Made by a program: the position numbers and the translations under genes
Part shown: positions 3,111-30,209 of the stretch, in pieces
Layout of the letters: every line of letters starts with the position of its first letter
Position numbering within the stretch: position 1 is the stretch's first letter
Notes under the pieces: generated by a model
Database searches by the model: none
Seen by the model: the letters and a program-made list of their open reading frames with translations, nothing else
Told to the model about the DNA's origin: nothing
DNA from: Xylanibacter ruminicola 23
Lineage (GTDB): Bacteria > Bacteroidota > Bacteroidia > Bacteroidales > Bacteroidaceae
Direction of reading: 5' to 3'
NCBI RefSeq assembly: GCF_000025925.1
Contig: NC_014033.1
Location: 3,540,001-3,572,000, forward strand
Length of the DNA stretch: 32,000 bases

Positions 3111-3130
3111 CTATGATTTTATGTTAATTA

Positions 3131-3158
3131 TCAACTTTCAATTCTCAATTATCAATTT
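3131..3158 (+). repeat. Heptamer array TCAAYTN x4 (tcaactt tcaattc tcaatta tcaattt)
   Basis: Direct reading. It lies between the terminator and the glyQS promoter. The same unit family occurs inside dxs at 11497-11530. Confidence 0.8.
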
Positions 3159-5403: not shown

Positions 5404-5446
5404 GTAGCACTAAGAATAACAAAACTTTTTATAAAATCCATTGCCT

Positions 5447-6283
5447 ATGCCTAAATACGCCGATTACATTAAACGCATCGAGATCGACTCGCTTTGGAGC
5501 GGGAAGAAACATATTGTGTGGGAGCTTAACCGTCAGGTTAACATCCTCAGTGGTACTAACGGTCAGGGCAAAAGTACCATCCTGAATAAGGTGGTAAAGG
5601 GTTTGATTGCAGGTGGCGAGTTCCCCTCGCACATGCTCAAGGGTGTTCACTTGGATGTGGTGCCCGAGGATGCCAAGTGGATTCGTTACGACATGATTCG
5701 TTCGCTCGATACCAACCTGCAGCAGGCATTGGCCGAGGGCGAGGGATTCCTCCGTCAGGCCTTTTCGGCATTGGCTGGTGTTGGTGGCGGTTCGCTGCTC
5801 GATATCCAGCTCTACAACCTGCAGCGCAAGTACCTTGATTATCAGGTAAACATAGGCAATCGCATTATCGAAAAACTGCAGAGCGGCGATACCGATGCCG
5901 CTCAGCAGCTTTCACAAAAAAAGTCACGTTTCCAGGACATTGTAGATGACCTGTTCCGCGAAACGGGCAAAAAGATTATCCGTACCGAGAACGAACTGCG
6001 CTTCACCCAGATAGGCGAGGTGCTGCTGCCCTATCAGTTGTCGAGCGGCGAGAAGCAGATGCTCATCATCCTGCTCACCGTGCTGGTCGAGGACAACCAG
6101 CCTTACGTGCTGTTTATGGACGAACCCGAGGTGTCGCTCCATCTCGAATGGCAGAAGCGTCTGGTCGATCTCTGTGTCGAACTTAACCCTAACGTACAGA
6201 TTATCCTCACCACCCATTCGCCCGCCATCGTCATGAATGGTTGGGTTGATGCCGTTACCGAAGTAAGCGATATAACAGTATAA
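5447..6283 (+). CDS. Compact ABC/SMC-type ATPase (AriA-like partner of DUF4435)
   Basis: 278 aa from the ATG at 5447 (track start 5441 is TTG). Walker A GTNGQGKST, signature-like LSSGEKQ, Walker B VLFMDEPEVSLH, H-loop TTHSP. Confidence 0.8.
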   Translation: MPKYADYIKRIEIDSLWSGKKHIVWELNRQVNILSGTNGQGKSTILNKVVKGLIAGGEFPSHMLKGVHLDVVPEDAKWIRYDMIRSLDTNLQQALAEGEGFLRQAFSALAGVGGGSLLDIQLYNLQRKYLDYQVNIGNRIIEKLQSGDTDAAQQLSQKKSRFQDIVDDLFRETGKKIIRTENELRFTQIGEVLLPYQLSSGEKQMLIILLTVLVEDNQPYVLFMDEPEVSLHLEWQKRLVDLCVELNPNVQIILTTHSPAIVMNGWVDAVTEVSDITV

Positions 6284-6287
6284 TTTA

Positions 6288-6345
6288 GCAGCGGACTACA
6301 CGACTTTAGGAATAAGGAAAATCGTAAAGTCCTGTTGTCCGTTGC
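6288..6345. repeat. Palindromic element copy 1 (21-nt arms, 16-nt loop) in the ATPase-DUF4435 spacer
   Basis: Left arm gcagcggactacacgacttta (6288-6308) against right arm taaagtcctgttgtccgttgc (6325-6345): 18 Watson-Crick pairs, 1 G.U and 2 mismatches. The right arm plus flank is about 90 percent identical to 28044-28078. Confidence 0.8.
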
Positions 6346-6358
6346 AAATAAATGAAGA

Positions 6359-7357
6359 ATGGGAAGTAGATTAAAAGATAATCTGAATAGCAAGTATTTC
6401 GAGGCGGCCAATGCGCTCACCTCTAAAAAGGCGCGACGTAGGATAGTGGCCTATGTCGAGAGCTACGATGATATCTACTTCTGGCGCACCGTTCTCAGCG
6501 AGTTCGAGAACGATAAGCGCTACTTCGAGGTGATGCTGCCCTCAAAAATCAATCTCACACGCGGCAAGAAATCCGTACTGATGAACTTCCTCGAGGGCGA
6601 GCCATTGGGACGCGATATGATTGCCTGCGTAGATGCCGATTACGACTACCTGATGCAGGGTCGCACCCATCAGTCGCAGCGCATCCTGAACAGTCCGTAC
6701 GTGTTCCACACCTACGTGTATGCCATCGAGAATTTTCAGTGTTACGCCCCTTCGCTGCATAATGTATGCGTGTCGGTAACGCTCAACGATCATCGCATCT
6801 TCGATTTCCGCGATTACTTCCAGCAGTTCTCCGAGGCCATCTTCCCACTTTTTGTGTGGAGTGTCATGGTGTATCGCAATGGCAATTACTCACGGTTCTC
6901 TATCACCGACTTCTGTCGTATTGCCGATCCGGGCGGTTTCAGTGTGCAGAATCCCGCAGCCTCTATCAACAACGTGAAGCGTAAGGTGCGCACCAAGATC
7001 AACGATCTGCAGCGCCAGTTCCCCGATGCCAAAGATGAGTATCTGCGTACCAAGGACGATATCCGTGCTTTAGGCGTAACGCCGCAAACCACCTATCTTT
7101 ATATACAGGGTCATCATTTGTTCGACACCGTTGTGTCGCCCATCCTGTCAAAGGTGTGCAATCTGTTACGCCAGGAGCGCCAGAACGAAATCTATCACGC
7201 CTCTGCCCATCGTACGCAGAAGCGAAACGAAATGTCCTGCTACGAAAACTCGCTGCAGGACATTAAAACGATGCTTAAGAAAAACACGGGCTACATGAGT
7301 TGCGAGCAATTCCAACGCCTGCAGTCCGACATCCATAATTATTTAGGCACGGATTAA
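6359..7357 (+). CDS. DUF4435/TOPRIM-like protein (AriB/OLD-nuclease-like)
   Basis: 332 aa. Acidic motif RIVAYVESYDDIYFW, DxD in CVDADYDY, and YAIENFQCY, as I recall for DUF4435. Directly downstream of the ATPase. Confidence 0.72.
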   Translation: MGSRLKDNLNSKYFEAANALTSKKARRRIVAYVESYDDIYFWRTVLSEFENDKRYFEVMLPSKINLTRGKKSVLMNFLEGEPLGRDMIACVDADYDYLMQGRTHQSQRILNSPYVFHTYVYAIENFQCYAPSLHNVCVSVTLNDHRIFDFRDYFQQFSEAIFPLFVWSVMVYRNGNYSRFSITDFCRIADPGGFSVQNPAASINNVKRKVRTKINDLQRQFPDAKDEYLRTKDDIRALGVTPQTTYLYIQGHHLFDTVVSPILSKVCNLLRQERQNEIYHASAHRTQKRNEMSCYENSLQDIKTMLKKNTGYMSCEQFQRLQSDIHNYLGTD

Positions 7358-7438
7358 CACGGCTTTATAAATAAAGACACGGCTGTTGTTAACGAAAAAG
7401 CAGCGTCTCTCTAAAAGAGAGCCGTGTTAATCCGTGCC
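7346..7438. terminator. Bidirectional terminator region between convergent DUF4435 and manA genes
   Basis: Perfect 18-bp inverted repeat: ggcacggattaacacggc (7346-7363, overlapping the DUF4435 stop) and gccgtgttaatccgtgcc (7421-7438). Inner hairpin tctctc-taaaa-gagaga. Confidence 0.6.
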
Positions 7439-7446
7439 AAAAATAA

Positions 7447-11225: not shown

Positions 11226-13120
11226 GCCTCCAAAATAGCTTTCTTAATGCCTTCTTCGTCAATGCCCACAATGTGCTGCAGCTCCTTTACGGTGCCGTGC
11301 TCCACAAAGTTGTCGGGCAGTCCCAGTCGTGTCACCTTTGGTGCGTAACCGTGATCGTTCATCCACTCCAGCACAGCGCTACCCAGTCCGCCTTGGCGTA
11401 CACCGTTCTCAACGGTAATCACCTTCTTAAACTTCTTGCCTACCTCTTCCAGAATCGATTCATCAATCGGTTTGAGGAATCGCATGTCGTAGTGTGCAAT
11501 TGATAATTGACAATTGATAATTGACAATTGTTCTATCGCTCTGGTGACATTATTGCCAATCGGGCCAATGCTCAGTACAGCTATGTCGTCGCCGTCGTGC
11601 AGTTTACGTCCGGTACCCACCTTTATCTCCTCCAGTGGGCATCGCCAGTCCTGCAGCTCGCCGCCACCACGTGGATAGCGTATCACGAACGGACCCTTGT
11701 TAGGCAGCTGGGCGGTGTACATCAGTCGTCGCAGCTCGTGCTCATCCAGTGGCGAGCTAATCGTCAGGTTTGGTATGGGGCGCAGGGCAGCCAGGTCAAA
11801 GGCACCATGGTGTGTGGCACCATCCTCGCCCACCAGTCCCGAGCGGTCAAAGCAGAACACCACGTTCAGGTTCAGCAGTGCCACGTCGTGTATAATATTG
11901 TCGAATGCACGCTGCGCAAAGGCGCTGTAGATATTGCAGAAGGGCAGCAGTCCATCTTTGGCCATACCGCCGCTGAATGTCACGGCGTGTCCCTCGGCTA
12001 TACCCACGTCAAACGTGCGTTCGGGCATCTCTTTCATCATGATGTTCATCGAGCAGCCGCTGGGCATCGCAGGAGTCACACCCACAATCTTTGGGTTCTG
12101 CTTAGCCAGTTCCAGCAGCGTGTGTCCGAATACATCCTGGTATTTCTGTGGCTTGGTGGGGTCGTTGTCCACCAGGCGCTCACCAGTGTCGGGGTTAAAC
12201 TTGCCCGGTGCGTGCCATACCGTCACATCCTTCTCGGCAGGTGCATAGCCATGTCCCTTCTTGGTGTGCAGGTGCAGCAGTTTGGGTCCGGTCATATTCT
12301 TCAGCTGACTCAGTATGCGCACCAGTTCCTTCACGTTGTGTCCGTCAAACGGTCCGAAGTACTGTATGTTCATACCGTCAAAAATGTTCTGCTGGTGACT
12401 GATGGCGCTCTTCATGGCGTTTGTCAGTCGTATCAGGCCTTTCTTGCGGTCGTCGTTCAGCATACCGTGACGGTTAAACCAGCGTGCCGTCTTAAACTTA
12501 ATGGCGTTATACGTCTCGTTGGTGCTCAGGTTCAGCAGATACTGCTTCATGCCGCCCACACTGCGGTCGATACTCATGTTGTTATCGTTCAGTATGATCA
12601 GCAGGTTGTTAGGGCTGCTCGAAACATTGTTCAGTCCCTCAAAAGCCAGTCCGCCGCTCAGTGCACCGTCGCCAATCACAGCCACCACATGGCGGTTGTG
12701 CTTGCCCTCCAGTTCAGCTGCTACGGCCATACCCAAGGCTGCCGATACCGAGTTGCTGGCGTGTCCGCAGGCAAAGGTGTCGTACTCGCTCTCTTCGGGC
12801 GATGGGAAAGGCTTAATTCCGCCCAACTTACGGTTGGTGCAGAATCGGTCTTTACGGCCAGTCAGAATCTTATGTCCGTAAGCCTGGTGTCCCACGTCCC
12901 AAACTATTCTGTCTTCGGGGGTGTTATATACGTAATGTAGTGCAACCGTAATTTCGGCCACACCCAAACTCGAGGCTAAGTGTCCAGGGTTCACTGCCAC
13001 TTCTTCAATGATGTCGCGTCGCAGTTCGTCGCAAACCTGTGGCAATTCATCCACCTTTAGTTTTCTCAAATCATCAGGTGTCTGGATCTTATTTAAAAGA
13101 GTAAACTCAGTTTTTTCCAC
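11222..13120 (-). CDS. dxs: 1-deoxy-D-xylulose-5-phosphate synthase
   Basis: 632 aa. TPP motif [18 protein letters not shown] and transketolase-like domains. 4-nt ATGA overlap with trkA, so dxs-trkA-trkH(-manA) looks like one operon. Confidence 0.95.
11497..11530. repeat. 14-nt unit (two heptamers) x2.4 inside dxs coding sequence
   Basis: Plus strand reads caattga taattga caattga taattga caattg. The sense strand reads TCAATTR heptamers and encodes [11 protein letters not shown]. Confidence 0.85.
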
Positions 13121-13880: not shown

Positions 13881-13893
13881 ACTTTTTAATTCA

Positions 13894-13928
13894 TTTAATG
13901 TTTAATGTTTCATGTTTAATGTTTCATG
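13894..13928 (-). repeat. Heptamer array A (5 units), sense-strand AAA(C/G)AT(T/G) family
   Basis: Plus strand reads tttaatg tttaatg tttcatg tttaatg tttcatg, immediately 3' of the smalltalk-like stop codon. Confidence 0.9.
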
Positions 13929-14033
13929 TTACAACGTGCCAACGCACGATGTGGCTCCCAGCGCCGTCACTATCGCCGTAGCGATACTAGCAATCATCTG
14001 CACGATGAACTTTAATGTCTCCTTCTTGCTCAT
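13929..14033 (-). CDS. Smalltalk-like 34-aa membrane peptide (not in ORF track)
   Basis: Hand translation gives MSKKETLKFIVQMIASIATAIVTALGATSCVGTL: a basic N-terminus plus one hydrophobic helix. Its position just downstream of an HU-like gene matches my memory of the Bacteroidales smalltalk family. Confidence 0.55.
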   Translation of the reverse strand: MSKKETLKFIVQMIASIATAIVTALGATSCVGTL

Positions 14034-14061
14034 AATCTTTAATCTTTAATGTTTCATGTTT
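14034..14061 (-). repeat. Heptamer array B (4 units) abutting the smalltalk-like ATG
   Basis: Plus strand reads aatcttt aatcttt aatgttt catgttt. In sense orientation this is aaacatg aaacatt aaagatt aaagatt-ATG. Confidence 0.9.
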
Positions 14062-14107
14062 CGCTCGACATCCCGTAGGGTGGCGCTTGCTACCGAAGGG
14101 ACGCAAG

Positions 14108-14135
14108 AATGTTTAATCTTTAATGTTTAATGTTA
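14108..14135 (-). repeat. Heptamer array C (4 units) after the HU hairpin
   Basis: Plus strand reads aatgttt aatcttt aatgttt aatgtta. Confidence 0.9.
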
Positions 14136-14158
14136 GGGTGGGGCTTTCGCCCCAACCC
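14136..14158 (-). terminator. GC-rich hairpin right after the HU-like stop (attenuator or processing site?)
   Basis: Sense strand reads gggttggggc-gaaa-gccccaccc (one bulged base). No U-tract follows; the A-rich heptamers come next. Confidence 0.5.
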
Positions 14159-14702: not shown

Positions 14703-14742
14703 AATTCTAGTTTAATTTTTGTGTTGTTGTAAAATAATTTTT

Positions 14743-14770
14743 AATGTTTAATCTTTAATGTTTAATGTCT
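14743..14770 (-). repeat. Heptamer array D (4 units) in the HU leader
   Basis: Plus strand reads aatgttt aatcttt aatgttt aatgtct, 41 nt upstream of the HU ATG. Confidence 0.9.
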
Positions 14771-14796
14771 CAACTCCGATGTTGGTTTTGCGGCCT

Positions 14797-17110: not shown

Positions 17111-18325
17111 ATGAATAAGGAAATACAGTTATCTGGCGAAAAACTGCTACGAGCTGTAGCTGATATTAAAGAAGCCATTTTGCAAGGCCAGTATGAGGCC
17201 AGCAAGGGCGTGAATCGCATACAGTTGGCAGTGTATTTTGGTATCGGAAAATATATCTCCCAGCATACACGAAAGGGTGTATGGGGTACTGGCGCATTAG
17301 ATGCAATCAGCAATCAGTTACGTAGAGAATTGCCTGGACTGCGTGGATTCTCGGCTACCAGTCTGAAGAAAATGCGATTGTTTTATGAACATTGGGCATT
17401 TTTGGACGCAAAATCGTCCGTCACAACGGACAATTTCAATTCGTCCGTCGCAACGGACGATATTTCAGGAAGTGAGCTTGCTGATAATTCGGCAACTTCA
17501 ATTGTAAAATTGGAAGAAATTGATATTTATAATACGATTCAAGTTCCTCTTACACAAGATTTTCCTATAGAGGACTTCTTTAGAGTTCCATTTACGCACC
17601 ATGTCGAAATATTCAAGATTACCAATCTTGATGCACGCTATTACTACATACATAGGACTGCTGAGGAACATCTTCAAGTAGAGAGGCTAAAGAAGTTGAT
17701 CAAGGAGGATGCCTACGGCCATCGTGAGCAGATGCCCAGCAACTTTACTAAAACCATTTCTAATGCTGAGATGATGCGTAAGGCCGTCATGATGTTTAAA
17801 GACTCCTACATGCTGGATTTTATTAATGTGGAGGAGATTGGTGTGCGTGACAGTATTGATGTGGATGAGCGTGTAGTTGAAAGGGAAATAGTGAATAAGG
17901 TGAAGAATTTCATCATGACTATAGGGCGCGACTTTACGTTTATGGGAAACCAACAGCTGTTGGAGGTATATGGCGTAGAGCAGTTCCCCGACTTGTTGTT
18001 CTTCAATCGCGAGCTGAATGCTATGGTGGTGATAGAACTGAAGACAGGTGAATTCAAAACCAGCTATCTTGGTCAGCTGATGGGCTATCTTACTATTCTG
18101 GACGAGAAAGTCAGAAAACCACATGAGAACCCTAGTATTGGTATGGTATTGTGCAAGTCGGCCAATCGTGAGTACGTGGAGTTCATGATTCGCGACTATT
18201 CAAAGCCAATGGGTGTGGCTACTTATAAAACGGCTGATGATATGCCAGAGAAATTCCGTAAAGCATTGCCTGATATTGATGCTTTGAAGAAATTGATGAG
18301 CGAAGGGCAAGATAAGGATGAATAG
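17111..18325 (+). CDS. DUF1016/YhcG-family PD-(D/E)xK nuclease embedded in the R-M operon
   Basis: 404 aa. YhcG-like N-terminal domain (...GFSATSLKKMRLFYEHW). C-terminal FPDLLFFNRELNAMVVIELKTGEFK...NPSIGMVLCKS matches the PD-ExK core. Confidence 0.8.
   Translation: MNKEIQLSGEKLLRAVADIKEAILQGQYEASKGVNRIQLAVYFGIGKYISQHTRKGVWGTGALDAISNQLRRELPGLRGFSATSLKKMRLFYEHWAFLDAKSSVTTDNFNSSVATDDISGSELADNSATSIVKLEEIDIYNTIQVPLTQDFPIEDFFRVPFTHHVEIFKITNLDARYYYIHRTAEEHLQVERLKKLIKEDAYGHREQMPSNFTKTISNAEMMRKAVMMFKDSYMLDFINVEEIGVRDSIDVDERVVEREIVNKVKNFIMTIGRDFTFMGNQQLLEVYGVEQFPDLLFFNRELNAMVVIELKTGEFKTSYLGQLMGYLTILDEKVRKPHENPSIGMVLCKSANREYVEFMIRDYSKPMGVATYKTADDMPEKFRKALPDIDALKKLMSEGQDKDE
17414..17461. repeat. Tandem 27-nt duplication, each copy a hairpin with core (G/A)CAACGGAC
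   Basis: tcgtccgtcacaacggacaat (6-bp stem) and tcgtccgtcgcaacggacgat (8-bp stem, loop cgca). They encode SSVTTDNFN and SSVATDDIS. Confidence 0.8.
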
Positions 18326-23719: not shown

Positions 23720-24589
23720 ATGAAATTCAAGGTCTTTTTCGTCAGGTATGTACAAAGCATGCCTGATCTCTTCGGGAATGTCGTGGCCGTAGATGGTACC
23801 GATGCTCTCAAACCCGTGATTGTCAACGACTTCTTGAAACGCAAGGAGCTAACTTTTATCAACCCCAGAAATGGAAAAACCTATCACCGACATTATGCCA
23901 TTATGCCTCAGGGTGGAGTGGCTGTGATTGATGTGGGAAAATATGTGGATGGCAACTTTGTGTATGCTACCGTAGGCATTAATCTGAGCGGTAACCAGTA
24001 CCAACCATATATAGTGATAGGATGCCACCATAAAGAGTTTAGCGATACAAACCTGATAGCTAATATGGTAACACAATCGCTTAACTGGGCGCTGGCTGGT
24101 ACCAATACAACCGTAAAGCTTGAGGCCTGCCATAAGCCAATAGCCTGGGAAAAGGATATCTTGCATTCGTATATGAAGGGTATGGATAACCGTATGTTTA
24201 ACCCCATGAATGTTTTTGGATATGAGATGCTTGAAGAGCGGTTTGAAGAAATCGGTAAAAGTAAGGGGCGACCAAGAAAATCGATTAATATAGACGATTA
24301 TCTGCCCAAGGCTATGCGACAGAAAATTAAAGACTGGCTACATGAGGAGACTGATCAATATCAGTATCCGATTGATATGATGAGGGCTATAAGAGTTCTG
24401 TTTGAACTGGAGATTATTAAGAGGCCTACTTACGAGGCATTTGTGAGAGCGTTTGATAAAGAACAACTGATAGCGCCATCGACCTATAATAGTTATATGA
24501 ACCTGAATAATAATCCCTATGAACACGATGCTACTTACGTAAGTATGAAAGCTGATGCAAGGAGAAAGTTCTTTCTTGATAGCGTTTGA
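23720..24589 (+). CDS. Hypothetical 289-aa protein with AT-hook-like motif
   Basis: No family recognised. GKSKGRPRKSIN has a GRP core flanked by basic residues. The C-terminal block (...RPTYEAFVRAF...APSTYNSYMN) resembles a block in the next ORF. Confidence 0.65.
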   Translation: MKFKVFFVRYVQSMPDLFGNVVAVDGTDALKPVIVNDFLKRKELTFINPRNGKTYHRHYAIMPQGGVAVIDVGKYVDGNFVYATVGINLSGNQYQPYIVIGCHHKEFSDTNLIANMVTQSLNWALAGTNTTVKLEACHKPIAWEKDILHSYMKGMDNRMFNPMNVFGYEMLEERFEEIGKSKGRPRKSINIDDYLPKAMRQKIKDWLHEETDQYQYPIDMMRAIRVLFELEIIKRPTYEAFVRAFDKEQLIAPSTYNSYMNLNNNPYEHDATYVSMKADARRKFFLDSV

Positions 24590-24647
24590 TAGCGTTTGAT
24601 AGCATTTAATAGCATTAGATAGCGTTTAATAGCGCTTGATAGCATTA
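24578..24647 (+). repeat. Seven tandem 10-bp iteron-like repeats (R)ATAGCRYTW
   Basis: gatagcgttt gatagcgttt gatagcattt aatagcatta gatagcgttt aatagcgctt gatagcatta. The first unit overlaps the last codons of the AT-hook ORF. Confidence 0.9.
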
Positions 24648-24648
24648 T

Positions 24649-24700
24649 CCATTATTTCATATTTCGCTATGAAATGATGGATATTTTTTGTTTTATTTTT
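24649..24700 (+). terminator. 13-bp-stem AT-rich hairpin plus T-tract
   Basis: ccattatttcata-tttcgc-tatgaaatgatgg (1 mismatch) followed by atattttttgttttattttt. Confidence 0.55.
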
Positions 24701-26006: not shown

Positions 26007-26288
26007 ATGAACACAATGATTTTAAGAGTGAAAAAGTGCGGGGTAATGACTACCGTACAGAGTGAGAAAAGTGAGAATGGCGTACTTGACAAGCGTACAC
26101 TGGTACTGCAGATGTTGGGTGGCAAGTATGAGGACAGCTTTGTGGTAACAGCCCTGGGCAGTTTGGCCACCATCGAGTGGACCGAGGGCGAGTTGGTTGC
26201 CTGTAGCATGAGCTTCAGAACCCGAGAGCACAACGGACAGGTGTACATGGACGTGATTGCGAACGAAATCCAAAAGATTAAACGTTGA
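26007..26288 (+). CDS. DUF3127-like small OB-fold protein (possible ssDNA binder)
   Basis: 93 aa. The pattern (...VQSEKSENGVLDKRTLVLQ...YEDSFVVTALGS...EGELVACSMSFRTREHNGQVYMDVIANEI) matches my memory of DUF3127 topology. Confidence 0.5.
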   Translation: MNTMILRVKKCGVMTTVQSEKSENGVLDKRTLVLQMLGGKYEDSFVVTALGSLATIEWTEGELVACSMSFRTREHNGQVYMDVIANEIQKIKR

Positions 26289-26321
26289 ACATTAAACATT
26301 AAAGATTAAACATTAAAGATT
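26287..26321 (+). repeat. Heptamer array E (5 units)
   Basis: gaacatt aaacatt aaagatt aaacatt aaagatt, from the stop of the DUF3127-like ORF to 9 nt before the next ATG. Confidence 0.9.
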
Positions 26322-26330
26322 AAAAAAGTT

Positions 26331-26888
26331 ATGTATTTAAGTGAAGCAATTAAAGCAATGGAGATGAACCTCCGCAGCACATGTATGATGCTGGAGGCTG
26401 TAAGAAACAATCAAGTGGACAAGGCAATAGATTATGACTGGCTGCCGATGCAGGACCATCTGGCCTTGTGTATTCCAACGATTACTATTAGCGAGGAATC
26501 AAGTGTGGAGGACTGCTTAAAGTACCTAGGTCAGCTGTACAAAGGGCTTACCAAAGCTATGGCCCACTATAAGAAGGGCAATCGTATAGTAGGAGATGTG
26601 GATCGCAATGTAGTGTATATGGTTGACATGCTGTATGGGTTAATAGGGCACCAGTTTAACGAGGACTATGTGAACTGTGCCAGAGAGTGTGTTAAGGCAT
26701 ATAACCAGACACCTATCGATCCTAACGAAGAAAAGAACGATGAGAACGCTCGTATCTGGCGACGCAAGGTGCTTGATAAGTTCGGTGTTATCCTGAAGAA
26801 GTACGATATCGACATTACCGAAAAAGGTGAGTGGAGTATCAGAGAGGGGTATCTGGTGGAATGGTTAGATAGAAAGTACTGGAAATAA
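26331..26888 (+). CDS. Hypothetical 185-aa protein
   Basis: Intact ORF in the operon context, preceded by a heptamer array. No motif recognised. Confidence 0.6.
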   Translation: MYLSEAIKAMEMNLRSTCMMLEAVRNNQVDKAIDYDWLPMQDHLALCIPTITISEESSVEDCLKYLGQLYKGLTKAMAHYKKGNRIVGDVDRNVVYMVDMLYGLIGHQFNEDYVNCARECVKAYNQTPIDPNEEKNDENARIWRRKVLDKFGVILKKYDIDITEKGEWSIREGYLVEWLDRKYWK

Positions 26889-26976: not shown

Positions 26977-27348
26977 ATGAAAACAAATAACAAATTAAAC
27001 AAGACCGTAACTGTTAACGGCATGATGGCCGTTACAAAGAGTGATTTAGAAATGGATTATGTGCAGTTTTTGCCTGATAATCCGAGTATAGGACAAGTGG
27101 AGGCTTTTCGTGGTCGTGGATTAGGTCAATTGTTGACCAACGGATCATTTGAGTTTGTGAGAACCAAACGATTGCGCCATAAACCTGAATTCAAAGGTGG
27201 TTACGCCAGTTTGTCGTTTGGCGCAGATGGCAATGATCGCGTAACTTTTGTGGTGCCTAACGAACTGCGCGCCCAGTTGCCAACCATCCTGCGAAAGGGT
27301 ATTTGTCCAATCATTAAACACCTGCAAAAGAAAGGATTTAGTAAATGA
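26977..27348 (+). CDS. Hypothetical 123-aa protein
   Basis: ATG at 26977 preceded by an A-rich leader (the track start 26905 is GTG). Its stop overlaps the next start (ATGA). Confidence 0.55.
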   Translation: MKTNNKLNKTVTVNGMMAVTKSDLEMDYVQFLPDNPSIGQVEAFRGRGLGQLLTNGSFEFVRTKRLRHKPEFKGGYASLSFGADGNDRVTFVVPNELRAQLPTILRKGICPIIKHLQKKGFSK

Positions 27349-29690
27349 TTTACCGTATCATAAATAAGGGTAAGAAGTTTGCTTATCTGGTAAAGAATCG
27401 TGAAGATTTCTTGGCGCTTAGAAACACCAAGGAGAATCTGGAGAACTTAGCCAAAGCGCGCAAAGGCGATGAGAAAGCTAAGGCCCAATTGGTGCAGTTT
27501 GCCTACAATATCGGTGTGCTAAAAAGTTCGGCTTTGGCTGGTTGCAAGAGCATTGGTAGCTACTTTTTTCATGATGTGGATTGCTACGATGCTGAACAGA
27601 GTGCAGCGATTGCAAAGCAGATATTGGCCAAGAAGGATGAGATTGGCTTGATGATGCTGGAGAAAAGTGCGAGTGGAGGATATCATTTGGTTTGTAAGCG
27701 CCAGCCTGGTACTACTCTTCTCGAGAATCAAGTGCGCATTGCGACCATTCTGCAGATTGAGATGGATACTAACGTGCATGATTTGCAAAGGGTGGTCTAT
27801 TCGACTAGTGGTGATGAAAAAGATTTACTTTATCTTGACGACGAGCTGTTTGGTGAACCGATGACGGTTGAGGAGTGCGAGGCGGAATATGCTAGATTGA
27901 AAGAGCGTGAACGTAAAGGTGAAGAGCAGGTGCCGGCTGGGGCTAAGAAGGCGAGGAAGCACTATAAGCCTTGGACTGAATTATTAGCAACGGACAACAG
28001 GACTAACAGGTCTGATTCTGCTGCTGAAAATACTACTGAAGAAAAAATCCTAAAGTCCTGTAGTCCGTTGCAAAATAAACCAATCGATGAAAGGGTAAGG
28101 TTTGTGATGGAGGCGGTTTTGAAGGCGAAGGGGCTGGAGAAGTCGGACTTTACGGATATTGGCGGTAGGCATAATGCGGTGAAGATATTCCTGAGTGGCT
28201 GTAACCAGTTATTAAGTAAGGAGGAGGCAAACGGAGCTTTGGCGGAACTGATGCCCGAACATTGGGCCGATGCGAATGTACAGAAATGCCTGAGTGATTT
28301 TTATGCCAAGTATTACAATCCTGAACGAAAACTGAATAAGGATGAAGAGGCAATATTTACGAAGAGTAGGAGACTGGGGGATGATAAAGAATCAGAAGTG
28401 AGTGATCGTTCTGCTCCTATTCCTCCTGAGATGCCGGCAAAACTGCCGAAACTGATTAAACTACTTACCAAGAATACCCCCAACCAATACAAAGCTGCGG
28501 TGGCGCATGCGGTGTTTCCATCGCTTGGAACACACTTGAAAGAAGTGGAGTTTGAGTACACCGATTACGTGAAGCATGAGGCCACGCTGATGAACTGTCT
28601 GATGGCGCATACGGGCGCAGGTAAAGGCTGTATAGATGAGCCCATCCGCCACATTATGGCCGATATTAAAGCCCGCGATGCCGAGAACACCCGACGTGAA
28701 GCCGAATGGAAAAAGGATTGCCAAAAGAAGGGCGCCAATAAGGACAAGCAGGTTCGCCCCGAAGGACTGGTGATACAAGAGATTGATCCCGATATGACCA
28801 AGCCTGCATTGGTTACCCGTATGGACGAAGCTGAAGGCCACTTTGTATATGTAAAGCTGAACGAGATTGACCTGTTTGAGCAGCTGAAAGGTCAGACTGG
28901 CAAGCAGCATTTCCAGCTGATGTGCTTGGCTTTCGATCCAGGTGCTGAGTTCGGTCAAACACGTATCGGTACACAGAGTGTAACTGCCAGACCTAAGTGT
29001 AGGTTCAACTGGAACGCCTGTACTACCATCCAAAAAGGTCGTCGCTTCTTCAGTCGTGTACTCACCGATGGTCCTATCAGCCGAATTAACTTCTGTACCA
29101 TCCCTGAGATGGAAATTGGAGCTGAACAACCTATCTATGGCAAGTACGACGAGGCGTTTGATGCTGAGCTGAAAACGTATATCGACAACCTTGTGTCGGC
29201 TCATGGTGTGGTGGATTGTCCGCAGGCATTCAAACTGGCTAAAAAGCTACAAGAGGAGTGCGCTGAATTTGCCCGATTGTCGCAGGATGAAACCTACTGG
29301 AACCTGTCGCATCGTGCCATTGTGATAGCCTGGTTAAAGGCCTGTGTGCTGTATGTGGCCAATGGCTGCCAATGGGAAAAGACGATTGAAGATTTTGTCC
29401 GTTGGAGCCTGCAGTACGATCTGTGGTGCAAAATGCAGTTCTTTGGTGAGGACATTGAAAAAGCCAACCAAGAAGGCGAGCGCATAGGAACTCGAGGCCC
29501 TCGTAATCTGCTGGAGCTGTTGCCTGATGAGTTTAGATTAGAAGATATTCAGCGTGTGCGCATCAAGCAGGGTATGTCTGGTGATAAACATAAATGCGGT
29601 CAGATGATTCGTCAGTGGGTTCATCGCAAATATGTGTTACAGGTGACAGATGACAGTTTTGTTAAGAGCGAAAAGTTTAGGAAACGTTAA
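27345..29690 (+). CDS. Primase-like protein: AEP/BT4734-type N-terminal domain plus DUF3987-like C-terminal region
   Basis: 781 aa. AEP motif I FFHDVDCYD and motif II KSASGGYHLV in the first roughly 130 aa. The C-terminal half has a P-loop-like HTGAGKGC. A low-complexity linker (aa about 215-243) carries the palindromic element. Confidence 0.7.
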   Translation: MIYRIINKGKKFAYLVKNREDFLALRNTKENLENLAKARKGDEKAKAQLVQFAYNIGVLKSSALAGCKSIGSYFFHDVDCYDAEQSAAIAKQILAKKDEIGLMMLEKSASGGYHLVCKRQPGTTLLENQVRIATILQIEMDTNVHDLQRVVYSTSGDEKDLLYLDDELFGEPMTVEECEAEYARLKERERKGEEQVPAGAKKARKHYKPWTELLATDNRTNRSDSAAENTTEEKILKSCSPLQNKPIDERVRFVMEAVLKAKGLEKSDFTDIGGRHNAVKIFLSGCNQLLSKEEANGALAELMPEHWADANVQKCLSDFYAKYYNPERKLNKDEEAIFTKSRRLGDDKESEVSDRSAPIPPEMPAKLPKLIKLLTKNTPNQYKAAVAHAVFPSLGTHLKEVEFEYTDYVKHEATLMNCLMAHTGAGKGCIDEPIRHIMADIKARDAENTRREAEWKKDCQKKGANKDKQVRPEGLVIQEIDPDMTKPALVTRMDEAEGHFVYVKLNEIDLFEQLKGQTGKQHFQLMCLAFDPGAEFGQTRIGTQSVTARPKCRFNWNACTTIQKGRRFFSRVLTDGPISRINFCTIPEMEIGAEQPIYGKYDEAFDAELKTYIDNLVSAHGVVDCPQAFKLAKKLQEECAEFARLSQDETYWNLSHRAIVIAWLKACVLYVANGCQWEKTIEDFVRWSLQYDLWCKMQFFGEDIEKANQEGERIGTRGPRNLLELLPDEFRLEDIQRVRIKQGMSGDKHKCGQMIRQWVHRKYVLQVTDDSFVKSEKFRKR
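27987..28071. repeat. Palindromic element copy 2, in-frame inside the primase-like ORF
   Basis: gcaacggacaacaggact (27987-28004) against agtcctgtagtccgttgc (28054-28071): 17/18 complementary, 49-nt spacer. 28044-28078 is nearly identical to 6318-6352. Confidence 0.85.
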
Positions 29691-29723
29691 ACATTAAACA
29701 TTAAACATTAAAGATTAAACATT
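29689..29723 (+). repeat. Heptamer array F (5 units)
   Basis: aaacatt aaacatt aaacatt aaagatt aaacatt, spanning from the primase-like stop codon to 3 nt before the M15 ATG. Confidence 0.9.
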
Positions 29724-29726
29724 AAA

Positions 29727-30209
29727 ATGGAACAGATAGTACAATTGAATAGTAAAGCAAACCTCTCCGAGCACTTCTTGCTCGGGGAGTTCACCAGGAG
29801 TAAGTATCCTGAAGTGTATAACATCCCTAGTCATGAGGTTATAGCCCATTTGAAGAACCTCTGCACTTGGCTGGAGGTTTTGCGAGAGAAAGCCTCGCAA
29901 CCTATCATCATTAACTCGGGTTATCGATCGCCGCAGTTGAATCGGAAGGTTGGTGGAGCACCCACTAGTAATCACTTAACGGGATGCGCTGTAGATATTC
30001 GTACTTCGGGGTATGAACAGGCGATAGTGTATGCGGCCATCCTCATCAATTATGCTAAAGAATCGCAGCAGGAGTTTGATGAACTGCTGATAGAGAAGCG
30101 CTCGGCTTTGCCGCTTGGCTCGTCCAAGAATCGCTATGGTGCCGTGTGGCTGCACTTTGCGGTTAGACCGAAAGATAATCGGCATAAAGTGAATTTTTTG
30201 ACTACATGA
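29727..30209 (+). CDS. Peptidase M15 (D-Ala-D-Ala carboxypeptidase/endolysin-like) zinc hydrolase
   Basis: 160 aa. SGYRSPQLNRKVGGAPTSNHLTGCAVDI (H-x6-D zinc site) and a distal His in VWLHFAV. Confidence 0.8.
   Translation: MEQIVQLNSKANLSEHFLLGEFTRSKYPEVYNIPSHEVIAHLKNLCTWLEVLREKASQPIIINSGYRSPQLNRKVGGAPTSNHLTGCAVDIRTSGYEQAIVYAAILINYAKESQQEFDELLIEKRSALPLGSSKNRYGAVWLHFAVRPKDNRHKVNFLTT

Follow-up and report, generated by a model that had tools for sequence, protein, structure and literature searches.

Rickettsia palindromic elements (RPEs) are dispersed palindromes that lie between genes and also, in frame, within unrelated genes, where they account for some tens of residues (PMC10969869). REPs (GTAG/CGTC-tagged repeats) also occur within genes, many of which are replication or repair genes (Di Nocera et al., 2013, PMC3733652). 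MITEs, among them Correia, ERIC and BOX, are small non-autonomous elements with inverted ends that can be co-transcribed within operons and can give rise to in-frame fusions (PMC10969869). PINSR of Prevotella intermedia and Prevotella nigrescens is a 188 bp repeat that has no inverted repeats; reports of it are limited to the intergenic regions of oral species (PMC4755523). We analysed a 32,000-nucleotide stretch of the Xylanibacter ruminicola 23 genome (the window) in which a palindrome lies inside an open reading frame (ORF). Our preferred explanation, to which, taken as a whole, we assign a probability of about 0.8, is that this segment represents a single copy from a dispersed family of imperfect palindromes of rumen Prevotella and Xylanibacter that is non-coding by nature. 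No description of this family, referred to here as GGACT or family 1, was found in the searchable literature.

The window contains four sites for the 20-nt motif AAAGTCCTGTWGTCCGTTGC (two or fewer mismatches) versus 0.00 expected from shuffled sequences. These sites, 6288–6307 (minus), 6326–6345 (plus), 27987–28006 (minus) and 28052–28071 (plus), form two inverted pairs, one of them intergenic (6288–6345) and the other within a 781-aa ORF (27987–28071, 85 nt):

27984..28074, plus strand: family-1 palindromic element, sense and in frame within the ORF, with the layout TTA/GCAACGGACAACAGGACT-AACAGGTCT ... loop ... AATCCTAA-AGTCCTGTAGTCCGTTGC/AAA (inverted-repeat search, folding and match to the 96-copy consensus)
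27987..28006, minus strand: left arm core, GCAACGGACAACAGGACTAA (motif search and alignment of copies)
28052..28071, plus strand: right arm core, AAAGTCCTGTAGTCCGTTGC (motif search)
27345..29690, plus strand: host ORF, 781 aa, primase-like, putatively of the BT4734-like_N (VirE-N) plus DUF3987 family (transitive homology)
6283..6348, plus strand: second family-1 copy, sense, filling the gap between the stop codon of an AAA_15/AAA_21 ATPase gene (6283) and the start of a DUF4435 gene (6359)

In the ORF copy, the two 21-nt arms (27984–28004 and 28054–28074) are 90% complementary and have 49 nt between them; the left arm core has the frequent A variant, which places an A.A mismatch in the stem. 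RNA folding gives −34.1 kcal/mol for positions 27981–28079 (z = −7.0) and −29.9 kcal/mol for positions 6281–6353 (z = −7.8). The original prediction had recognized 28044–28078 as a near-copy of 6318–6352, with a partner arm 49 nt upstream and a translation free of stops, and it proved correct in each respect: the direct similarity extends over 31 nt at 94% (6318–6348 and 28044–28074), the arms are spaced as proposed, and conceptual reading of the element in ORF 27345–29690 yields ...LATDNRTNRSDSAAENTTEEKILKSCSPLQNK... with zero stop codons. The intergenic copy at 6283..6348 has orthologous filled sites in two other loci (L131 and L092). The DUF4435 gene that follows this copy ends in yet another palindrome:

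7342..7442, plus strand: family-2 palindrome, TTTAGGCACGGATTAACACGGCT ... AGCCGTGTTAATCCGTGCCAAAA (inverted-repeat search and folding)

This palindrome folds at −49.5 kcal/mol (z = −11) and overlaps the final codons and the stop codon of the gene (..LGTD-stop). It represents a second family, related to family 1, which fills the linker of the primase-like protein in other strains.

Scanning a genome collection with the arm pattern retrieved at least 120 loci. The sequence covered amounts to about 1.8 Mb, in scattered loci. Among the matches listed, about 100 loci come from about 30 rumen Prevotellaceae genomes, with at least 13 loci in the richest genome (per-genome counts are minimum values), and there are at least 96 complete palindromes at no fewer than 62 distinct sites, with a clear consensus. 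A family-1 copy spans approximately 65–110 bp and has the outer ends 5'-TTTA/GCAACGG...CCGTTGC/AAAA-3'; each arm (∼24–30 nt) consists of three 8-nt units with GGACT and is not self-complementary, GTAG is found inside the right arm (AGTCCT-GTAG-TCCG), and the centre is variable. The listed palindromes are located between tandem genes in 62 cases, in convergent gaps in 4, in divergent gaps in 7 and inside ORFs in 15. Flanking stop or start codons are typically found 3–17 nt from the palindrome, and the usual order at a co-directional junction is stop codon, element, A-rich tail and start codon. The orientation relative to transcription is strongly biased, with 42 sense copies versus three antisense copies (30:3 for distinct sites, p = 1.4e-6), and those in-ORF copies that could be classified are all sense. 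The neighbours at other sites are housekeeping and core-metabolism genes, such as ispD and prmC. In the window, an Rfam 15 scan produced no match at the gathering score; at a permissive threshold there were only chance-level matches to miRNA-like hairpins (E ≥ 0.04). A scan of viral contigs returned six single-arm matches, probably due to chance, and zero palindromes.

In-frame copies were found in several other genes. The PrmC/HemK gene carries one between IPRPETE and ILDIGTGSG, and the proteins with this copy have ∼28–37 residues more than the solved HemK structures. Another lies between the two domains of a homocysteine-methyltransferase/B12-binding ORF; paralogs of the primase-like protein (25–65% identity) have in-frame copies at the equivalent junction, and in locus L111 stop-less copies join three domain-coding segments into a single 988-codon ORF. 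Between them, the in-frame copies are read in all three frames of the element, which argues against a selected peptide. The search for additional copies, and for copies in coding context, that had been proposed along with the original prediction was thus successful on both counts.

The host ORF itself has zero sequence matches in Pfam, NCBIfam, PHROG or PDB, and a PDB profile search was empty too. Its family assignment comes through homologs: PF08800 (BT4734-like_N) is matched by full-length homologs (30–41% identity, E ≤ 1e-77) at 25.7–27.4 bits (cut-off 22.4), PF13148 (DUF3987) is matched by the 25%-identical paralog L135 at 36.2 bits (cut-off 27), and homologs of 89–91% identity bear the UniRef label 'VirE N-terminal domain-containing'. 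This protein family of Bacteroidales is very large and unannotated, with 6746 word-index homologs and 1243 clusters at 50% identity. Its representatives at 30–58% identity are mostly full length (730–820 aa); short representatives with the N-part only or the C-part only also exist and may be contig-end fragments. An iteron-like array of 10-nt repeats is seen near the host ORF, at 24568–24656.

The element occupies the following part of this protein:

27981..28082, plus strand: protein linker, residues 213–246, between KHYKPW and DERVRF (ortholog comparison)

The element had been described as sitting in the linker between the AEP primase domain and the C-terminal domain. The blocks that bracket the element, KHYKPW and DERVRFVMEAVLKAK, are near-invariant among the orthologs. 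The two domain labels are putative: the ORF has no domain match of its own and they come from transitive homology only. The linker is probably disordered. An AlphaFold2 model built from a shallow alignment of 34 sequences (mean pLDDT 44.7, pTM 0.23) has pLDDT values below 30 at residues 192–245, which are not decisive for disorder, the model being poor over most of its length.

Comparison of 63 orthologous loci (61–97% identity) revealed 46 distinct linker sequences of 42–174 nt, always a multiple of three in length and always free of stop codons; SDSAAENTTEEK and SCSPLQNKPIDER are examples of the predicted peptides. Depending on the ortholog, the linker holds the GGACT palindrome, palindromes of other families, tandem repeats or nothing structured, and a paralog on the same chromosome that is 91% identical has a different, mosaic filler there. 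The other palindromes found in this linker also have copies outside the primase-like gene, including the one at 7342–7442 of the window. The ∼30 codons thus behave as an indel, as the RPE-like interpretation had anticipated. A hairpin with z < −2 is present in 20 of the 46 distinct linkers and there is no significant hairpin in the remaining 26, while the ortholog from strain P6B1 has kept the left arm alone. As the filler varies and at times contains nothing structured, the hairpin appears to be dispensable for the primase-like gene.

At orthologous sites, the element is present in some genomes and missing from others, in which the stop and start codons abut or overlap (GTAG/ATGG, ATGA). No target-site duplication was seen at five orthologous junctions compared in the filled and empty states. 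Copies would arise through insertion without target-site duplication, a mode of movement that we infer, and an intragenic copy would persist only under three conditions: a length that preserves the frame, no stop codon in the frame that is read, and a site at which additional residues are tolerated. The copy in the primase-like ORF would then add its ∼30 codons to the linker that follows the N-terminal primase-like domain; the insert is presumably translated and presumably neutral for the protein. The linker itself would act like intergenic DNA whose sole constraint is the reading frame, repeatedly gaining and swapping short tandem repeats as well as palindromes that belong to different families. 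The presence of several families at a single linker, and of the same family at the corresponding junction in a 25%-identical paralog, goes beyond what passive tolerance would predict and implies targeting or gene conversion. Identity at orthologous filled sites is 92% for the arms, 86% for the (mostly coding) flanks and 72% for the centres. Because the arms are better conserved than the flanks, and in view of the orientation bias, the data suggest that the GGACT family is more than a selfish or neutral repeat.

The alternative offered with the original prediction, that both loci share a functional structure, has to be considered separately for the primase-like gene and for the family. For the gene, structure appears unneeded, because half of the linkers have no significant hairpin and the P6B1 ortholog retains one arm; at the level of the family such a function is possible, given the orientation bias and the conservation of the arms. 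The family could serve operon transcripts as a functional RNA module, with a stable intercistronic hairpin followed by an A-rich leader in bacteria without Shine-Dalgarno pairing, selected through mRNA stability, processing or translational coupling or uncoupling. The copy in the primase-like ORF would then be non-neutral and could cause ribosomes to pause between the two domains or serve as a mark for RNA processing. The sense bias at co-directional junctions, the position of the copies a few nt past stop codons and ahead of start codons, arms that exceed even coding flanks in conservation, the sense orientation of the classifiable in-ORF copies and the rarity of copies in convergent gaps, the places that should tolerate neutral insertions best, are all in line with this possibility, which overlaps our preferred explanation. 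However, the stem lacks covariation: in 64 oriented copies, 74.8% of the cells are paired versus 76.7% after shuffling, polymorphic stem positions lead to mismatches and not to compensation, and G.U and A.C are about equally frequent at the single informative pair. Furthermore, many orthologous junctions function without the element, the window has no Rfam match and half of the primase linkers are hairpin-free; we consider a dedicated RNA module possible but less likely than not. Reading the hairpin as an intrinsic (Rho-independent) terminator was rejected: such a terminator has a U-run after its hairpin, whereas here, in the sense orientation, the T-rich stretch precedes the hairpin and the A-rich stretch follows it.

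Explanations specific to this locus fare worse. The family's normal place is a stop/start junction, the in-ORF copies have the junction orientation, and in L111 stop-less copies do connect three domain segments, so that the N- and C-parts of the primase-like protein might once have been separate coupled genes fused by a stop-less copy. Nevertheless, the ORF is continuous in 63 of 63 orthologous loci with whatever filler, orthologs that lack a palindrome are likewise fused, and the mostly full-length state of the distant representatives also speaks against such a relic, making it improbable. A cis site specific to the gene or to its mobile-element-like cluster, be it a single-strand origin, a primase recognition site or an attenuator controlling how much N-terminal product is made relative to the full-length one, would suit the primase-like nature of the host, the proximity of the iteron-like array and the fact that many orthologs have a strong hairpin of one kind or another here. 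This very improbable reading is largely refuted by the distribution of the element, which is found at more than 60 unrelated sites beside housekeeping genes (ispD and prmC, for example); the hairpin-free majority of the distinct linkers, the half element of P6B1 and the origin of the linker hairpins from unrelated sequence families are further points against it. Finally, two 31-nt direct repeats of 94% identity that are 21.7 kb apart could be taken for attL/attR-type boundaries of an island or for attC-like cassette sites, as imperfect strand-specific hairpins between co-directional genes resemble attC and defence genes (type I R-M, ATPase plus DUF4435) lie within or adjoin the interval. Housekeeping genes (Trk, DXS, mannose-6-P isomerase) lie in this interval too, the motif is scattered over more than 60 sites, the flanking genes elsewhere are those of core metabolism and not cassette arrays, and no strain was seen in which precisely the stretch at 6.3–28.0 kb is missing and one hybrid site remains; we regard recombination sites as extremely improbable. 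Island-boundary att sites were rejected on gene context. The attC core consensus is RYYYAAC/GTTRRRY, and attC sites are located in cassette arrays beside intI; an integron attC site was rejected, since the ends of the element, TAGCAAC ... GTTGCAA, do not fit this core and its neighbours are housekeeping genes.

A broader reading, which we offer as speculative and rather unlikely in its full form, is that the palindromes of the GGACT family and of the related GGCACGGAT family are mobile intercistronic modules that seek, in one orientation, the places where stop and start codons of co-directional genes abut. They may supply operon mRNA with a stable hairpin and an A-rich, Shine-Dalgarno-independent leader, and copies free of stops could join or lengthen coding segments, so that interdomain linkers arise or grow, as in the primase-like protein and in the three-domain ORF of L111. 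If true, they would constitute a junction-targeted, orientation-locked class of bacterial repeats with a role in operon expression and protein architecture. The strict orientation and junction placement of the family offer a tractable way into the organisation of operon transcripts where initiation is not Shine-Dalgarno-based. The palindromes also account for a hypervariable segment in a very large unannotated protein family of Bacteroidales, and they are a warning for annotation, as they give rise to spurious ORFs and peptides and are probably also a source of breaks in assemblies; the filled/empty polymorphisms could be used to type rumen Prevotella strains.

Among the known repeats, PINSR resembles the GGACT family in being lineage-restricted, highly amplified, intergenic and found in the genus Prevotella; its identity with the GGACT repeat was rejected, as sequence and architecture are unrelated. 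With MITEs, the GGACT family shares terminal inverted repeats, in the form of arms conserved across copies, but it differs from them in the lack of a target-site duplication at the five filled versus empty junctions, in having no known parent IS and in its extreme orientation bias. REP/BIME elements are likewise imperfect palindromes, mostly extragenic, located near the 3' ends of upstream ORFs between unidirectional genes and devoid of target-site duplications, and their presence in replication and repair genes parallels the primase-like host described here. In structure the element does not fit this class: REPs are palindromes of 20–40 nt with a terminal GTAG or CGTC, whereas the element has 65–110 nt, its arms are not self-complementary and its GTAG is internal. 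In addition, the GGACT arms are built of 8-nt units (∼24–30 nt per arm) and convergent gaps, unlike in REP/BIME, are rare hosts (4/73). The closest likeness proposed, that to RPEs, is well supported by a multi-copy palindrome that occurs in frame in unrelated genes and behaves as a linker indel: both RPEs and the GGACT family lie between genes and, in frame, at permissive positions of genes, as inserts missing from orthologs. RPEs are somewhat longer (∼100–150 bp versus 65–110 bp), and the GGACT family differs from them in having no conserved encoded peptide, with all three frames in use, and in being mostly intergenic and orientation-locked at gene junctions. The relationship proposed with RPEs is one of functional analogy and not of membership in the sequence families RPE-1 to RPE-10, and with its hosts in the Prevotellaceae (Bacteroidota), the GGACT family extends the phenomenon of RPEs and intragenic REPs to the Bacteroidota.

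A 20-nt motif, AAAGTCCTGTWGTCCGTTGC, occurs four times in the window at ≤ 2 mismatches (shuffled sequences contained none), arranged as two inverted pairs:

6288–6307 (minus strand) and 6326–6345 (plus strand), inverted pair 1
27987–28006 (minus strand) and 28052–28071 (plus strand), inverted pair 2, inside ORF 27345–29690

The original prediction that the two loci are similar, and that the whole inverted repeat is present and translated within the ORF, was borne out: 6318–6348 and 28044–28074 are 94% identical over 31 nt, the in-ORF arms are 21 nt long, 90% complementary and 49 nt apart, and the 781-aa ORF reads through them without stops, giving LATDNRTNRSDSAAENTTEEKILKSCSPLQNK. As single strands, 27981–28079 folds at −34.1 kcal/mol (z = −7.0 against dinucleotide shuffles) and 6281–6353 at −29.9 kcal/mol (z = −7.8). 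The first copy occupies the gap that separates the stop codon of an AAA_15/AAA_21 ATPase gene (6283) from the start codon of a DUF4435 gene (6359), a junction that is likewise filled in the comparison loci L131 and L092. This gene pair (5441–7357) has palindromes both between its genes and behind it; the weak resemblance of its ATPase to PtuA and retron effector ATPases suggests a defence-system-like module.

The second copy had been placed in the linker between an AEP primase domain and a C-terminal domain. The linker position stands, but the 'primase-like, two-domain' description holds by transitive homology only, because the domain matches lie in homologues and a paralogue, the ORF itself having no match in Pfam, NCBIfam, PHROGs or PDB sequences. 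A word-indexed search returned 6746 homologues, the closest from Prevotella/Xylanibacter ruminicola and some named 'VirE N-terminal domain-containing'; the family comprises 1243 clusters at 50% identity, with lengths of mostly 730–820 aa. Pfam PF08800 (BT4734-like_N) is matched at threshold by full-length homologues of 30–41% identity, and PF13148 (DUF3987) by a 25% identical paralogue (L135). In the host cluster an M15 peptidase gene comes after small ORFs that have no annotation; the cluster is flanked by a type I R-M system on one side and a polysaccharide-synthesis locus on the other. In GCA_019973335.1 (BPTT01000001.1), two primase-like plus M15 peptidase clusters (L207 and L208), 91% identical and on one chromosome, adjoin different defence islands (DndB/DEAD/MTase/Abi_2 and type I R-M), one being followed by a polysaccharide-synthesis locus. 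Upstream of the window's primase-like cluster, directly behind ORF 23720–24589, 8–9 tandem 10-nt units (GATAGCGTTT; 24568–24656) precede a 16-nt inverted repeat (24646–24683) and look like an iteron array.

A scan of the genome collection for the arm pattern AGTCSTGTWGTCCGYTGC found at least 120 loci. About 100 of the matches listed come from some 30 rumen Prevotellaceae genomes, with at least 13 loci in RUG12181 and at least 12 in Tb.RUG.304 among these matches, and the isolates P6B1 and X. ruminicola D31d among the sources; isolated matches in unrelated phyla are probably due to chance. The 96 complete palindromes in 1.8 Mb of DNA scanned have the consensus TTTA, GCAACGGACTACAGGACT(T/A)A(A/C)GGACT, a centre of 14–87 nt, AGTCCTnnAGTCCTGTAGTCCGTTGC and AAAA, each arm consisting of three 8-nt units with the core GGACT. 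Copies elsewhere, whose coding context the original prediction had left to be counted, lie mostly between co-directional genes: a crude ORF-based gene call assigns 62 to co-directional, 4 to convergent and 7 to divergent gaps and 15 to the inside of long ORFs. Between genes, copies stand just ∼ 3–17 nt away from the stop codon on one side and the start codon on the other. The element has asymmetric ends, with A on both sides of a GC...GC core, and its orientation can therefore be defined relative to transcription. In co-directional gaps it is sense in 42 cases and antisense in 3 (30 vs 3 with orthologous sites collapsed, P = 1.4e-6), and in-ORF copies are sense in all classifiable cases. The hairpin is not a canonical terminator, since the sequence after it in the sense orientation is A-rich rather than U-rich.

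Flank-to-flank comparison of orthologous junctions showed the element to be present in some genomes and absent from others. The junction upstream of ispD is empty in L150 (...GTAG/ATGG...) and L193 (...CTGATATG...) and filled in L108 and L146; an ATGA stop/start overlap in L109 corresponds in L130 to a stop, the element, an A-rich tail and ATG. One orthologous junction was found in three states:

L198, 7271–7288, empty
L109, 1674–1750, and L152, 3970–4048, GGACT palindrome
L189, 4563–4636, 8-nt tandem array (GGATTGAA)n

No target-site duplication was visible at filled vs empty orthologous junctions. At 19 orthologous filled pairs the arms are more alike (92.0%) than the flanks (85.8%), the centres being 72.2% identical, so that the arms must be either constrained or homogenized. 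A covariation test in 64 oriented copies did not support compensatory evolution in the stem (paired cells 74.8% vs 76.7% in shuffles), and two polymorphic stem positions produce mismatches, not compensating changes.

In 120 orthologues of the host protein (77–100% identity), KHYKPW and DERVRFVMEAVLKAK form near-invariant blocks, and the 20–55 residues separating them fall into discrete, mutually unrelated types, so that the suspected indel of about 30 codons proved to lie in an indel hot spot. Linker bounds could be defined in 63 of 80 orthologous loci from rumen metagenomes; in all 63 the linker is stop-free and a multiple of three long, and there are 46 distinct sequences of 42–174 nt. Folding gave z < −2 for 20 of these 46 and z < −3 for 13, about half having no notable structure, and several contain short tandem repeats in place of a hairpin (KMDDGR ×3, EVKSEEMKSEK). 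Other linker hairpins are members of further dispersed families, the L063 type having 21 copies outside the host gene. In BPTT01000001.1 (GCA_019973335.1), which carries the window gene and its 91% identical paralogue on the same chromosome, the paralogue keeps the outer ends and right arm around a different palindrome, and the Prevotella sp. P6B1 orthologue retains the left arm alone, still in frame. As about half of the linkers are unstructured and these genes hold partial elements with the frame kept, the hairpin is dispensable for the primase-like gene, the conserved feature being the reading frame.

The element is also found in frame in other genes. In L105 it separates IPRPETE from ILDIGTGSG in a PrmC/HemK gene, making this loop ∼ 30 residues longer than in solved HemK structures. 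A 988-codon ORF carries two stop-less copies, one joining an upstream domain to a homocysteine-methyltransferase domain, the other joining the latter to a B12-binding domain:

L111, 3954–6897, minus strand, 988-codon ORF of MAG SRR11784285_bin.40

This ORF could be a cistron fusion or an assembly or annotation artefact. Primase paralogues L142 (65%/50% identity) and L135 (25%) have the family at the equivalent N-terminal-domain boundary, L135 with a second copy in the following variable segment. Three host types use three element reading frames (LATDYRT, LQRTTGL and SSGLQD), which suggests that no particular peptide is under selection. Of the 96 copies, 79 have one or more of the six frames open, roughly the chance expectation for such a length by a rough estimate.

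Another linker type, that of L036 (TTAGGCACGGATT...), represents a second palindrome family, related to the first, and recurs in the window:

7342–7442, family-2 palindrome, TTTAGGCACGGATTAACACGGCT...AGCCGTGTTAATCCGTGCCAAAA, −49.5 kcal/mol, z = −11

It occupies the convergent gap behind the DUF4435 gene, providing its final codons and stop (LGTD*), and fills the primase linker of other strains (LGTD...NPCQ types). Sense heptamer repeats (AAACATT/AAAGATT)n, directly 5′ of start codons, look like another kind of junction filler, similar to the array of L189; one separates the primase stop (29690) from the M15 peptidase start (29727):

26252–26339 and 29668–29741, heptamer arrays
13882–13935, 14033–14139 and 14735–14788, minus strand, heptamer arrays

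Within an hsdS-like ORF (17111–18325), two tandem 27-nt units (17410–17464), each with the palindrome TCGTCCGTCRCAACGGACRA, have GCAACGGAC in common with the GGACT family, possibly by chance. Intergenic segments 3126–3157 and 11498–11529, 8.3 kb apart, carry short repeats of the AATTATCAA type and match each other in inverted orientation over 32 nt (88% complementarity).

The dispersed repeat, the orthologous indel and the in-frame copies in other genes support the predicted likeness to Rickettsia palindromic elements (RPEs). We consider it probable (about 0.8) that a dispersed palindromic repeat, devoid of target-site duplications and with the junction of co-directional genes as its normal niche, is represented here by a copy that became fixed in frame, the linker of the primase-like protein being permissive and hypervariable. 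Readings of the segment as a cis-site specific to this gene, a relic of fusion or a recombination site each seem very improbable. Passive tolerance is insufficient for three findings: copies are strictly oriented and placed at junctions, arms are conserved above the level of coding flanks, and several families recur at one primase linker and at its counterpart in distant paralogues. Either insertion is targeted, or gene conversion takes place, or the element would act at the RNA level in operon transcripts. Bacteroidota are not known to rely on Shine–Dalgarno pairing, and the A-rich tail directly 5′ of start codons is suggestive of such a role. That the GGACT family is a functional RNA module of operon transcripts, which overlaps with in-frame insertion, is a tentative proposal that the orientation bias favours and the stem mismatches do not.

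In-frame palindromic insertion has been described for RPEs and also for REPs that lie inside genes; such REPs are reported to be common in genes for replication and repair (PMC10969869, PMC3733652). The GGACT element behaves in the same way as both, a likeness of behaviour that need not mean membership. It is longer than the short self-complementary unit of REPs and has no terminal GTAG/CGTC tag; the absence of target-site duplications separates it from MITEs, and it does not have the attC core. In the literature searched, the arm sequences were not found and the sole Prevotella repeat was PINSR, which is unrelated. The family is an addition to RPE-like and intragenic-REP phenomena, with some unusual family-level properties.
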